64,000 nt of DNA, from assembly GCF_029227855.1 (NCBI RefSeq), contig NZ_CP074356.1; one strand, given 5' to 3'. A program made the translations under genes and the position numbers. Of this stretch, positions 7,800-46,164 are shown piece after piece (the first letter of the stretch is position 1; each line of letters begins with the position of its first letter). The notes under the pieces are model-generated. The model worked only from the letters and a program-made list of their open reading frames with translations, ran no database searches and was not told the DNA's origin. The stretch is from Escherichia coli (lineage in GTDB: Bacteria > Pseudomonadota > Gammaproteobacteria > Enterobacterales > Enterobacteriaceae).

Positions 7800-10280
7800 A
7801 TGTTGAGAATGACCCCACTTGCATCAGCAATCGTAGCGTTATTGCTCGGCATTGAAGCTTATGCAGCTGAAGAAACCTTTGATACCCATTTTATGATAGG
7901 TGGAATGAAAGACCAGCAGGTTGCAAATATTCGTCTTGATGATAATCAACCCTTGCCGGGGCAGTATGACATCGATATTTATGTCAATAAGCAATGGCGC
8001 GGGAAATATGAGATTATTGTTAAAGACAACCCGCAAGAAACATGTATATCAAGGGAAATTATCAAGCGGTTAGGCATTAATACCGATAACTTTGCCAGCG
8101 GTAAGCAATGTTTAACATTTGAGCAACTTGTTCAGGGTGGGAGCTATACCTGGGATATCGGGGTTTTTCGTCTCGATTTCAGTGTACCGCAGGCGTGGGT
8201 GGAAGAACTGGAAAGTGGCTATCTTCCACCGGAAAACTGGGAGCGGGGTATTAATGCGTTTTATACCTCTTATTATGTGAGTCAGTATTACAGCGACTAT
8301 AAAGCGTCGGGTAATAGCAAGAGTACATATGTACGTTTTAACAGCGGGTTAAACTTACTGGGGTGGCAACTGCATTCTGATGCCAGTTTCAGTAAAACAA
8401 ATAACAATCCAGGGGTGTGGAAAAGCAATACCCTGTATCTGGAACGTGGATTTGCCCAACTTCTCGGCACGCTTCGCGTGGGTGATATGTACACATCAAG
8501 CGATATTTTTGATTCTGTTCGCTTCAGCGGTGTGCGGTTGTTTCGTGATATGCAGATGTTGCCTAACTCGAAACAGAATTTTACTCCACGGGTGCAGGGG
8601 ATTGCTCAGAGTAACGCGCTGGTAACTATTGAACAGAACGGTTTTGTGGTTTATCAGAAAGAGGTTCCTCCTGGCCCGTTTGCGATTACAGATTTGCAGT
8701 TGGCCGGTGGTGGAGCAGATCTTGATGTCAGCGTGAAAGAGGCGGACGGTTCGGTAACCACCTATCTGGTGCCTTATGCAGCGGTGCCGAATATGCTGCA
8801 ACCTGGCGTGTCGAAATATGATTTTGCGGCGGGTCGTAGCCATATTGAAGGGGCGAGCAAACAAAGTGATTTTGTCCAGGCGGGTTATCAGTATGGTTTT
8901 AATAACTTATTGACGCTGTATGGCGGATCGATGGTCGCGAATAATTATTACGCGTTCACTTTGGGGACTAGCTGGAATACACGCATTGGTGCCATTTCCG
9001 TCGATGCCACGAAGTCGCATAGTAAACAAGACAACGGCGATGTGTTTGACGGGCAAAGTTATCAAATTGCCTACAACAAATTTGTGAGCCAAACGTCGAC
9101 GCGTTTTGGTCTGGCGGCCTGGCGTTATTCGTCGCGTGATTACCGGACATTTAACGATCACGTTTGGGCAAACAATAAAGATAATTATCGCCGTGATGAA
9201 AACGATATCTATGACATTGCCGATTATTACCAGAACGATTTTGGCCGTAAAAATAGCTTTTCTGCCAATATGAGCCAGTCATTGCCAGAAGGCTGGGGTT
9301 CTGTGTCCTTAAGTACGTTATGGCGAGATTACTGGGGGCGTAGCGGCAGCAGTAAGGATTATCAGTTGAGTTATTCCAACAACCTGCGACGGATAAGCTA
9401 TACCCTCGCGGCAAGCCAGGCTTATGACGAGAATCATCATGAAGAGAAACGTTTTAATATTTTTATATCGATTTCCTTTGATTGGGGTGATGACGTTACG
9501 ACGCCTCGTCGGCAAATATATATGTCTAACTCAACGACGTTTGATGATCAGGGTTTTGCCTCAAATAATACGGGATTATCGGGAACCGTTGGAAACCGGG
9601 ATCAATTTAACTATGGGGTCAACCTGAGTCATCAGCATCAGGGAAATGAAACAACAGCTGGAGCGAATTTAACCTGGAACGCGCCGGTGGCAACGGTGAA
9701 TGGCAGTTATAGTCAGTCGAGTACTTATCGACAGGCTGGAGCCAGTGTTTCAGGGGGCATTGTCGCCTGGTCGGGTGGCGTTAATCTGGCGAACCGTCTT
9801 TCCGAAACGTTTGCAGTGATGAATGCGCCAGGAATTAAAGATGCTTATGTCAATGGGCAAAAATATCGCACAACAAACCGTAATGGAGTGGTGGTATACG
9901 ACGGAATGACACCTTATCGGGAAAATCACCTGATGCTGGATGTGTCGCAAAGCGATAGCGAAGCAGAATTGCGCGGTAACCGGAAAATTGCCGCACCTTA
10001 TCGCGGCGCGGTTGTACTGGTTAATTTTGATACCGATCAGCGCAAGCCCTGGTTTATAAAAGCGTTAAGAACGGATGGGCAACCATTAACGTTTGGTTAT
10101 GAAGTCAATGATATCCATGGTCATAATATTGGCGTTGTCGGCCAGGGAAGCCAGTTATTTATTCGCACCAATGAAGTTCCGCCATCGGTTAATGTAGCAA
10201 TTGATAAGCAACAAGGACTTTCATGCACAATCACCTTCGGTAAAGAGATTGATGAAAGTAGAAATTATATTTGCCAGTAA
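7800..10280 (+). CDS. yehB: Outer-membrane fimbrial usher
   Basis: ORF 7785..10280; start placed at MLRMTPLASAIVA (826 aa); size and signal peptide typical of FimD/PapC ushers. Confidence 0.85.
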   Translation: MLRMTPLASAIVALLLGIEAYAAEETFDTHFMIGGMKDQQVANIRLDDNQPLPGQYDIDIYVNKQWRGKYEIIVKDNPQETCISREIIKRLGINTDNFASGKQCLTFEQLVQGGSYTWDIGVFRLDFSVPQAWVEELESGYLPPENWERGINAFYTSYYVSQYYSDYKASGNSKSTYVRFNSGLNLLGWQLHSDASFSKTNNNPGVWKSNTLYLERGFAQLLGTLRVGDMYTSSDIFDSVRFSGVRLFRDMQMLPNSKQNFTPRVQGIAQSNALVTIEQNGFVVYQKEVPPGPFAITDLQLAGGGADLDVSVKEADGSVTTYLVPYAAVPNMLQPGVSKYDFAAGRSHIEGASKQSDFVQAGYQYGFNNLLTLYGGSMVANNYYAFTLGTSWNTRIGAISVDATKSHSKQDNGDVFDGQSYQIAYNKFVSQTSTRFGLAAWRYSSRDYRTFNDHVWANNKDNYRRDENDIYDIADYYQNDFGRKNSFSANMSQSLPEGWGSVSLSTLWRDYWGRSGSSKDYQLSYSNNLRRISYTLAASQAYDENHHEEKRFNIFISISFDWGDDVTTPRRQIYMSNSTTFDDQGFASNNTGLSGTVGNRDQFNYGVNLSHQHQGNETTAGANLTWNAPVATVNGSYSQSSTYRQAGASVSGGIVAWSGGVNLANRLSETFAVMNAPGIKDAYVNGQKYRTTNRNGVVVYDGMTPYRENHLMLDVSQSDSEAELRGNRKIAAPYRGAVVLVNFDTDQRKPWFIKALRTDGQPLTFGYEVNDIHGHNIGVVGQGSQLFIRTNEVPPSVNVAIDKQQGLSCTITFGKEIDESRNYICQ

Positions 10281-43500: not shown

Positions 43501-43698
43501 ATCCGGGCTGGCACCTGGGTAGAGGGTGACCACCTGAATGGTTGGATAGTCCACTTCCGGCAGCGCCGAAACGGGCAGGGCACGATAACCGATAATCCCG
43601 GCGAGTAAGATCGCCACCATCAGCAGCGTGGTGGCGACAGGACGCATAATAAACAGGCGCGATGGGCCGCCTGTGCTGCTCGGGGGTAACACCTGCAT
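40576..43698 (-). CDS. mdtB: RND multidrug efflux permease MdtB
   Basis: 1040-aa AcrB-family ORF immediately upstream of mdtC. Confidence 0.95.
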
Positions 43699-44945
43699 CA
43701 GGAGCGTGCTCCTTTTTTCGCGTATTCGCGGCTGGTGGCTTTCTCTTCCGGAGTGGTGGCGCTCTGGGCTTCCACTACTTCCACTTTCGCCCCTTCGGTC
43801 AGGCGATCAATGCCGTCTGTCACTACGCGGTCGCCCGCAGAAATACCTGCGCGGATCACCACTTTCTGACTGTCCTGAATGCCCGGCGTCACCAGATGTT
43901 TGCTGACCTTGTTTTCGCTATTCAGCACCCAGACAAAATGGCCTTCATTGCCCATTTGCAGGGCGGCGGTGGGGATCACCACGGCGTTTTGTTCGGTGTC
44001 GACTAACATACGCGCGTTAACAAACTGATTGGGAAACAGTGCATCATCCTGATTATTAAAGCGTGCTTTCACTTTAATCGTACCGGTAGTGGCATCGATT
44101 TGGTTATCGAGGCTTAACAGCGTGCCTTCACTTAATTTCTTCGAGTTGGTGCGATCCCAGGCTTCAACAACCAGCGGTTTTCCGGCTTTTTGCGCCTGTA
44201 CTACGGTAGCGATATCGCTTTCCGGCAGGGTAAAGACTAAATCGATAGGGTGCGTCTGGGTGATCACCACAATCCCGGTGGTATCACCACTGGAGATTTG
44301 GTTACCAACATCAACCTGCTTGAGACCAACGCGACCATCGACTGGTGCGGTGATGCGGCTCCAGTCGAGTTGCAGCTGCGCGCTGGCGACGCTTGCTTCA
44401 TCAGCCTTAATGGTGCCTTCGGTTTCACTGACCAGCGCCTGTTGGGCATCCAGCTCCTGACGAGATACGAGATTGGTTTTTACCAGTTGTTGATAACGCG
44501 CCAGGTCACGGCGGGCGTTGGCAAGCGTGGCTTTATCTTTTGCCAGTTGGCCCTGGGCTTGTGCTAATGCAACTTTGAACTGGCTTGGGTCAATTTCTGC
44601 CAGTAAATCGCCTGCTTTGACCTGCTGGCCTTCCTGGAAATGTAACGCTATCAGTTGGCCGTCCACGCGGCTGCGCACCGTAACGGTATTAGCGGCGGTA
44701 ATGGTGCCAAGCCCGGTGAGGTAACGCGGAACTGCCTGTTCTACGGCGGTCGCCGCCTGAACCGGGGCTAATGGGCCGGAACGCATACCACGGCGACCAC
44801 CCGCTGGCGATTGCTGCGCTTGTTTCGTCGCCCCTGGGGCTGCACTCCGGGAGTCATTGCGGCCTTGCCAGAACCAGAATGCGGCGATGGCGGCGATAAC
44901 CACCACGATTACGATTACCCAACGGGATTTATAACTGCCTTTCAT
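43698..44945 (-). CDS. mdtA: RND efflux membrane fusion protein MdtA
   Basis: ORF 43698..45092; start placed at [16 protein letters not shown] (415 aa). Confidence 0.9.
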
Positions 44946-44998
44946 CGTTAAGAGTTTCTCTTCCTGAAACGTTTCGCGGAATGATACTAGTGTAGCCA

Positions 44999-45016
44999 GC
45001 CAATAAGGGAGAAAAA
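44999..45016 (-). promoter_or_regulatory. Putative BaeR binding box upstream of mdtA
   Basis: Minus strand reads tttttctcccttattggc, close to the BaeR box consensus as recalled (TTTTTCTCCATDATTGGC). Confidence 0.5.
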
Positions 45017-45169
45017 TGGAGGAATTATGAAACACTATCGGGAATCGTCTGAATGGCGGGCACATTTGCGAGCACGCATCCAGTAATAACACATGAAACT
45101 ATTTTATCTACGCGTTAGCGATAGACTACGTGCATGGCGAAAGGAGGTAAGCCGATGATTTCAGCGGGA

Positions 45170-45310
45170 CGCTGAAACGGGAAAGCCCCTCCCGAGGAAG
45201 GGGCCATAAATAAATAAGGAAAGGGTCATGATGAAGCTACTCATCATCGTGGTGCTCTTAGTCATTAGCTGGCCAGCTTACTAAGACTACCAGGGCGGGG
45301 GAAACCCCGC
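45170..45310 (-). ncRNA. sib: Sib-family antisense sRNA (antitoxin) covering ibs copy 1; ends approximate
   Basis: Sib antitoxins are encoded fully antisense to ibs; minus-strand hairpin gcccctc/gaggggc at 45184-45204 followed by a U-rich stretch could be the 3' end. Confidence 0.5.
45228..45284 (+). CDS. ibs: Ibs-family type I toxin (18 aa, MMKLLIIVVLLVISWPAY)
   Basis: Small hydrophobic ORF preceded by aaggaaagggtc SD; matches the Ibs toxin family pattern. Below the ORF-track length cutoff. Confidence 0.75.
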   Translation: MMKLLIIVVLLVISWPAY

Positions 45311-45497
45311 TCTACCCTCACTCCTGAAAGTATGCCTTCACGATAAGATTGTCAATCTGCAGGCTTTGCAGTCTGCGATCCTGCCAGCAAATATTCTTTG
45401 CGAGACGTTACGCAATAATCACACTGGAAACTATTTTATCCGCAAGTCAGCGATAGACTGCATACAGGGCGAAAGGAGGTAAGCCGACGATTTCAGC

Positions 45498-45638
45498 GGG
45501 ACGCTGAAACGGGAAAGCCCCTCCCGAGGAAGGGGCCTTAAATAAGGAAAGGGTCATGATGAAGATACTCATCATCGTGGTGCTCTTAGTGATTAGCTAC
45601 CCAGCATACTAAGACTACCAGGGCGGGGGAAACCCCGC
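45498..45638 (-). ncRNA. sib: Sib-family antisense sRNA covering ibs copy 2; ends approximate
   Basis: Position inferred by repeat periodicity relative to copy 1. Confidence 0.45.
45556..45612 (+). CDS. ibs: Ibs-family type I toxin (18 aa, MMKILIIVVLLVISYPAY)
   Basis: Second repeat unit; same SD and ORF architecture. Confidence 0.75.
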   Translation: MMKILIIVVLLVISYPAY

Positions 45639-45826
45639 TCTACCCTCACTCCTGAAATTATGCCTTCACGATAAGATTGTCAATCTGCAGGCTTTGCAGT
45701 CTGCGATCCTGCCAGCAAATATTCTTTGCGAGTCGTTACGCAATAATCACAGAGGAAACTATTTTGTTCACGCGTTAGCGATAGACTGCATTCAGGGCGA
45801 AAGGAGGTAAGCCGACGATTTCAGCG

Positions 45827-45967
45827 GGACGCTGAAACGGGAAACCCTCTCCCGGAGAAGAGGGCTTTTAATAAGGAAAGGGTTATGATGAAGCACGTCA
45901 TCATACTGGTGATACTCTTAGTGATTAGCTTCCAGGCTTACTAAGAACACCAGGGGGAGGTGGAAAC
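45827..45967 (-). ncRNA. sib: Sib-family antisense sRNA covering ibs copy 3; ends approximate
   Basis: Position inferred by repeat periodicity. Confidence 0.45.
45885..45944 (+). CDS. ibs: Ibs-family type I toxin (19 aa, MMKHVIILVILLVISFQAY)
   Basis: Third repeat unit; variant C-terminus (FQAY). Confidence 0.7.
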   Translation: MMKHVIILVILLVISFQAY

Positions 45968-46164
45968 CTCTCCCTAACCCTCACTCCTGAAATTATGTCA
46001 CTCCGCCCTTAGTGTCAATCGACGGCTCTCCGTTCTTGCGAGGCGAATAGCAAAATTTTCTGCGCCGCCGGGCCTAATTCTGAAAGTTTCTTCGTTTGCT
46101 CTTATTTCATTATTGCAGTCGGTATGATACCGGACCTCAATAATTCTCTAAGAAAGGATTTCTT

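Follow-up and report, generated by a model that had tools for sequence, protein, structure and literature searches.

The DNA analysed in this work is a stretch of 64,000 nucleotides from Escherichia coli (hereafter the window), in which mdtA, the gene for the membrane fusion protein of MdtABC-TolC, occupies positions 43698-44945 of the minus strand. The gene was identified as an open reading frame (ORF) that includes the 415-aa MdtA from an ATG at 44945, and by the annotation of K-12 and of a RefSeq genome identical to the window. In this RefSeq genome, which is 100% identical over the locus, the complete operon mdtA-mdtB-mdtC-mdtD-baeS-baeR lies downstream of the mdtA promoter, and three genes for Ibs-family toxins, followed by yegL and pphC, lie upstream. 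Positions with a minus sign are counted upstream from the A of the mdtA ATG, so that -1 corresponds to 44946.

The promoter region comprises, in order of distance from the start codon, the mdtA leader with the ribosome-binding region (44946-44983, minus strand, -38 to -1), which is the same in the ten loci compared below; a -10-like hexamer, TAGTAT, read from the sequence (44984-44989, minus strand, -44 to -39); a gap of 9 nt with the bases TGGCTACAC (-53 to -45); a BaeR box on the same strand as mdtA (44999-45016, minus strand, -71 to -54); and a unique spacer of 48 bp, from the box to the repeat boundary (45017-45064), to which the polymorphisms of the promoter region are confined (at -92, -95, -111, -113 and -119). 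The Sib/Ibs type I toxin-antitoxin array beyond this spacer is a separate module upstream of the mdtA promoter.

The Sib/Ibs array between mdtA and yegL

Three full matches to the Rfam SIB_RNA model were found on the minus strand, with scores of 140-149 bits at a gathering score of 56, and antisense to each Sib RNA runs a hydrophobic ibs ORF of 18-19 codons (MMKLLIIVVLLVISWPAY, MMKILIIVVLLVISYPAY and MMKHVIILVILLVISFQAY), each annotated as an Ibs toxin in the identical genome. The mdtA-side edge of repeat homology is at 45065, which leaves 48 bp between it and the box, as determined by a repeat search and by alignment of the units to each other. Unit 1, which is proximal to mdtA and was delimited by repeat families and the unit alignment, spans 332 bp (45065-45396) and carries its ibs toxin ORF on the plus strand at 45228-45284; the product of this ORF, MMKLLIIVVLLVISWPAY, has its own RefSeq accession, WP_100249772.1. 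Unit 2 spans 328 bp (45397-45724), with an ibs ORF at 45556-45612 on the plus strand and a Sib RNA match at 45541-45683 on the minus strand. Unit 3, the yegL-proximal IbsA/SibA unit (45725-46018), contains ibsA at 45885-45944 on the plus strand and a Sib RNA match at 45870-46018 on the minus strand. The array is a normal member of the Sib/Ibs (QUAD) repeats (Fozo et al. 2008; Han et al. 2010), arranged in tandem between mdtA and yegL like sibA and sibB of K-12.

Read in the direction of mdtA transcription, each unit presents the near-consensus Sib promoter, the Sib RNA, a terminator made up of a G+C-rich hairpin and an interrupted U tract, a second hairpin and the arm upstream of ibs. Sib is therefore co-directional with mdtA and ibs is divergent from it, and the ibs-mdtA intergenic region, 282 bp long, contains the box. 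The proximal Sib antitoxin RNA (SibB-like) was placed at 45180-45319 of the minus strand by transferring the ends of K-12 sibB (2153646-2153781) by alignment. Its promoter was located by a regular-expression search as TTGACA, 17 nt, TACTTT at 45327-45355 of the minus strand, with the first hexamer starting at -410; the start predicted from these hexamers, about -374, agrees with the transferred 5' end of K-12 sibB. Transcribed towards mdtA, the RNA ends in the terminal hairpin GGCCCCTTCCTCGGGAGGGGC, which is followed by TTTCCCGTTTC.

The proximal Rfam SIB_RNA match (45213-45355, minus strand, 140.2 bits) is offset by about 35 nt from the ends transferred from K-12: it extends from the -35 hexamer TTGACA and stops short of the terminator hairpin, and the model thus seems to follow the DNA repeat more than the transcript. 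A (TTAT)n tract in the same unit (45209-45220), between the ribosome-binding site of ibs and the Sib terminator and hence inside both the 3' part of the Sib RNA and the 5' leader of ibs, is variable in length: the window has TTATTTATTTAT, other strains TTATTTAT or TTATTTAA.

The possibility that the mdtA promoter is itself a piece of a degenerate Sib unit was considered and rejected, since the score of an alignment of 44946-45064 with the inter-unit spacer was matched by 10% of shuffles. Judged by this alignment, the 119-bp promoter segment is unique DNA and not repeat.

The BaeR box and the core promoter

The original prediction had placed a site close to the BaeR box consensus on the minus strand at 44999-45016, in an mdtA promoter abutting ibs/sib repeats whose first unit would begin less than 100 bp beyond the site. 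These coordinates are exact, and the region is the mdtA promoter with the Sib/Ibs tandem array as its immediate upstream neighbour. The distance holds for the start of repeat homology at 45065; it does not hold for the other landmarks of the first unit, namely the 3' end of the Sib RNA (45180) and the ibs start codon (45228), which lie further away.

Read directly from the minus strand, the box is TTTTTCTCCCTTATTGGC, and it agrees with the published consensus TTTTTCTCCATDATTGGC (Nishino et al. 2005, as quoted by PMC3799227 and PMC3915751) at 17 of 18 positions, the sole mismatch being C for A at position 10. When up to one mismatch was allowed, it was the single match in the 64-kb window, and none of 100 dinucleotide-preserving shuffles of the window contained a match; with up to three mismatches it was still the single match, at an expectation of 0.19. 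The site thus combines a match to the consensus with a sense orientation before a BaeR-controlled operon, as in promoters of the BaeR regulon. For the alternative BaeR motif TCTNCANAA (Yamamoto 2008), no exact match was found near mdtA, and the window as a whole contains fewer copies than chance would give. The CpxR consensus GTAAANNNNNGTAAA was searched for at up to two mismatches in 44946-45100, which takes in the spacer and the first repeat arm, and gave no match.

The motif was also searched for more widely, by scanning 100,044 species genomes with TTTTTCTCCNNNATTGGC. At least 120 stretches matched; almost all of the 80 matches listed were in unrelated, non-enterobacterial genomes, and tblastn of 120 of the at least 120 matched stretches found no mdtA. 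The only relevant locus among the matches listed was the spy promoter of E. albertii NBRC 107761 (L024, 385-402), where a perfect consensus BaeR box, TTTTTCTCCATAATTGGC, stands about 140 nt upstream of spy. The two promoters have the 18-bp motif in common and differ in its placement, about 140 nt before the ATG at spy versus 54-71 nt at mdtA, and in that no Sib/Ibs array is near the spy box. About 55 nt further upstream of the E. albertii box lies TCTGCAAAA, which fits the alternative consensus TCTNCANAA.

The sequence upstream of mdtA was compared with that of K-12 MG1655, a check that had been proposed together with the original prediction. Over the 88 bp of the alignment from the box to the ATG the two are 100% identical, and three substitutions (-92, -95 and -111) separate them in the spacer upstream of the box. 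The K-12 equivalent of the box, at NC_000913.3 2153945-2153962, is identical. The promoter is accordingly that of K-12 mdtABCD-baeSR (Baranova & Nikaido 2002; Nagakubo et al. 2002; Nishino et al. 2005) in its box-to-ATG sequence, in the offset of the box (-71 to -54), in the operon downstream and in the distance to the proximal Sib/Ibs neighbour. The two loci differ further upstream: the array has three units in the window and two in K-12, the proximal unit of the window has gained 4 nt (TTAT), and residue 15 of the proximal Ibs is W in the window and F in K-12 IbsB.

The match of the box, its position, its identity with K-12 and the invariant geometry described below are joined in the literature by BaeR occupancy in vivo and by baeR-dependent induction, both shown for the identical K-12 sequence. 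BaeR ChIP-exo in K-12 gave two peaks upstream of mdtA, at 2153931-2153967 and 2153972-2153998 (Choudhary et al. 2020, PMC7657598, Data Set S2), and these have the top signal-to-noise values of that BaeR set (PMC7657598). The first of them (peak_5) encloses the K-12 box. The second (peak_6), which corresponds to 44963-44989 of the window, starts exactly at TAGTAT and spans the predicted start-site region; in our reading, it may come from polymerase held by BaeR. In a baeR knockout under 5% ethanol stress, mdtA changed by a log2 value of -4.0, and it was unchanged without stress (PMC7657598). The mdt-bae operon is also among only four reported BaeR binding sites (Bury-Moné et al. 2009, PMC2731931). 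No CpxR ChIP-exo peak is reported at mdtA, and ibsA, ibsB and sibA are absent from all supplementary tables of the BaeR regulon study, in which short genes may not have been scored (PMC7657598).

Taken together, the feature is very probably the canonical BaeR-dependent promoter of mdtABCD-baeSR, unchanged from E. coli K-12, with binding in the source strain expected by virtue of its identity with the K-12 sequence. It is an already known feature and amounts to the prototype of promoters with a BaeR box.

In the core promoter, the position of TAGTAT suggests that this hexamer is the -10 of mdtA, and transcription would then start at about -32, near 44977. A -35 element would be expected 17 nt upstream of TAGTAT, but the six bases there, TCTCCC, are not usable as one. 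A simple sigma-70 scan did not call the mdtA promoter and gave it no positive support, a silence to be expected of an activator-dependent promoter. A sigma-70 site that the scan did report upstream of the box (TTCAGA, 18 nt, CATAAT; 45053-45024, minus strand) was set aside as not meaningful, one such site having been found where 1.8 were expected.

At pho-box promoters, the activator site replaces the -35, stands about 10 nt from the -10 region and recruits polymerase. With TAGTAT as its putative -10, the mdtA promoter would resemble these PhoB-activated promoters, in that its box lies 9 nt before TAGTAT and its -35 position reads TCTCCC. Its regulator and motif are different ones, and the mechanism proposed here for mdtA is a putative one. 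Envelope stress would activate the kinase BaeS, and phosphorylated BaeR would bind the 18-bp box at -71 to -54. Because the box stands 9 nt before TAGTAT and TCTCCC offers no usable -35, BaeR, a member of the OmpR/PhoB family, would be expected to draw in RNA polymerase while bound across the -35 position, in the manner of PhoB at pho boxes. Since the operon ends with baeSR, its activation would also raise the supply of the regulator, a positive feedback.

Promoter geometry and array size among E. coli genomes

Ten loci were read, of which five have two Sib/Ibs units (K-12; E. coli BS-04, locus L002; E. coli 203740, locus L005; and loci L007 and L008), two have three (the window and O157:H7, L006), two have four (B-DolR, an E. 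coli B derivative, L003; and L004) and one has five (L129). The box was at -71 in all ten, whatever the number of units, and there were zero indels in -120 to -1 and zero substitutions in -91 to -1. Further upstream, a hairpin directly follows the proximal Sib terminator; its start is at -232 in all loci but one. The exception, L002, has a 12-bp insertion, ACAATAAATAAA, at about -178 in the ibs upstream arm, which is unrelated to unit number. No other length change was seen in the ten loci from the box up to the proximal Sib terminator.

A 171-bp promoter query was found at one place per genome in 5416 of 5426 complete E. coli genomes, always at an identity of at least 95%, and the spans of its matches contained no net indels in 30 of 30 evenly sampled rows. 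In E. coli WWCOL-315 (L131), the IS66-family element ISCro1 is inserted at about -91, 20 bp upstream of the box; the box and the core promoter are retained, and the element sits between the box and the place where the Sib array is expected.

A small plus-strand ORF at 45028-45087 was also considered. It has 19 codons, with GGAGG 5 nt before its ATG, which lies 12 nt past the distal edge of the box. As a gene it was rejected, since the -111 substitution creates a TGA after 9 codons in K-12, L004, L005, L007 and L008, and it is probably not one.

Unit number was estimated across genomes with a 79-bp query for the junction between units, which was found at 8787 places in 5237 of the 5426 complete E. 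coli genomes, at 1 to 6 places per genome. These junction counts imply 2 to about 7 units, with a mean near 2.7, across complete E. coli genomes. In two evenly sampled rankings the rough proportions were ~40-57% for two units, 28-40% for three and about 12% for four. Three units, as in the window, were found in 16 of 40 and 11 of 40 evenly sampled genomes and are an ordinary E. coli state.

The units also differ in identity and order. From the mdtA side, the Ibs variants are LLII..SWPAY, ILII..SYPAY and IbsA in the window and ILII..SYPAY, WIII..SFPAY and IbsA in O157; L007 and L008 have no IbsA-type unit, and L129 has two identical adjacent units. To judge from the unit sequences, such differences among strains indicate that the units of the array often recombine or undergo gene conversion with one another. 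In L005, a transposase gene of IS421 (IS4-like) lies between the two Sib/Ibs units.

In repeat-controlled, phase-variable promoters, such as those of Haemophilus and Neisseria, the repeat number alters the spacing between the -35 and the -10 or between activator and promoter. The mdtA locus is like them in having a variable-number repeat near a promoter. It differs in that the unit here is ~330 bp long, is a functional gene pair and lies wholly upstream of the promoter elements. Repeat number does vary at the locus, but the tract does not separate any promoter elements, and their spacing stays the same as it varies; the mdtA promoter is not a repeat-controlled promoter of the contingency type.

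Possible connections between the array and the promoter

The original prediction had gone on to propose that, as repeats expand or contract, the upstream elements of the mdtA promoter could come to be spaced differently. This part fails on the identical geometry of the ten loci with 2-5 units: an unchanged promoter geometry at any repeat number, named beforehand as the outcome that would speak against the proposal, was looked for and found. The broader idea that Sib/Ibs unit number tunes mdtA expression through the spacing or phasing of upstream promoter elements draws on the variation in unit number among strains (2, 3, 4 and 5 verified) and on an array boundary only 48 bp from the box. We consider it highly improbable. 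No repeat lies between any pair of known promoter elements, the sequence from box to ATG is identical throughout, and the hairpin after the proximal terminator keeps its place in nine of ten loci. Neither a CpxR-type site in the spacer or first repeat arm nor a CpxR ChIP-exo peak at mdtA was found, and nothing located past the first unit, over 400 bp upstream, is known to act on the promoter. Gain or loss of units cannot alter the mdtA side of 45065, because unequal exchange changes only the interior of the array and the known promoter elements are outside it. As for the box itself, 18-mers can match at random, and the scan with TTTTTCTCCNNNATTGGC returned many unrelated matches; even so, the probability that the box is a functionless chance resemblance is vanishingly small. 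That reading was rejected on the result of the shuffles, on the place of the box upstream of a BaeR target, on its invariance in ten loci and on the BaeR ChIP-exo peak over the identical K-12 sequence.

Two further readings would connect the proximal unit alone with the BaeR-dependent promoter. Read-through from the strong, co-directional proximal Sib promoter could provide BaeR-independent basal transcription of mdtABCD-baeSR or occlude the mdtA promoter, possibly alongside BaeR; that promoter is near consensus and directed at mdtA, the U tract of the terminator is weak and interrupted (UUUCCCGUUUC), and only 163 bp separate the 3' end of the Sib RNA from the box. It nevertheless appears quite unlikely, as folding gives a stable 8-bp G+C-rich terminator stem followed immediately by a second, 9-bp hairpin, and as the equal unstressed mdtA levels of wild type and baeR knockout, with an induction that depends strongly on baeR, leave little room for a large contribution. 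With the proximal unit at an equal distance in every strain, any such effect would moreover be independent of unit number. Alternatively, BaeR bound at the box might also regulate the proximal ibs gene and so tie envelope stress to a type I toxin, an arrangement suggested by the divergence of ibs (plus strand) and mdtA (minus strand) with the box inside their 282-bp intergenic region. The promoters of ibsC and ibsD are reported to lie no more than about 230 bp before the ORF, and their mRNAs to be about 160 nt long (PMC2943612). By analogy with the ibsC mRNA, the start of the proximal ibs transcript would lie at ~45130-45170, at a distance from the box (over 110 bp) that a -35-overlapping contact could not span; the other two units have a matching ibs upstream arm that carries no BaeR box, and the BaeR regulon tables list no ibs or sib gene, though short genes may have gone unscored there. 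Regulation of ibs by BaeR is for these reasons very improbable.

A functional wiring of the proximal Sib/Ibs unit to the stress promoter by either route, Sib read-through or an effect of BaeR on the ibs promoter, is decidedly improbable; if true, a type I toxin that depolarises the membrane would be linked to envelope stress signalling. The unvarying distance from proximal unit to box in nine of ten loci is compatible with such wiring, and simple inheritance explains it equally well.

With the BaeR-dependent K-12 promoter as the preferred reading, Sib/Ibs copy number (2 to about 7) leaves the promoter untouched and should not be invoked where strains differ in mdtABC expression. What the check chiefly achieves is to remove a plausible but unsupported link between toxin-antitoxin copy number and the regulation of a multidrug-efflux operon. 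If mdtABC expression does differ by strain, the candidates are the spacer substitutions (-92 to -119) and rare IS insertions just upstream of the box. Substitutions in the ibs-mdtA intergenic region, which corresponds to 44946-45228 of the window, have been used as E. coli host-source markers in microbial source tracking (PMC11267920).
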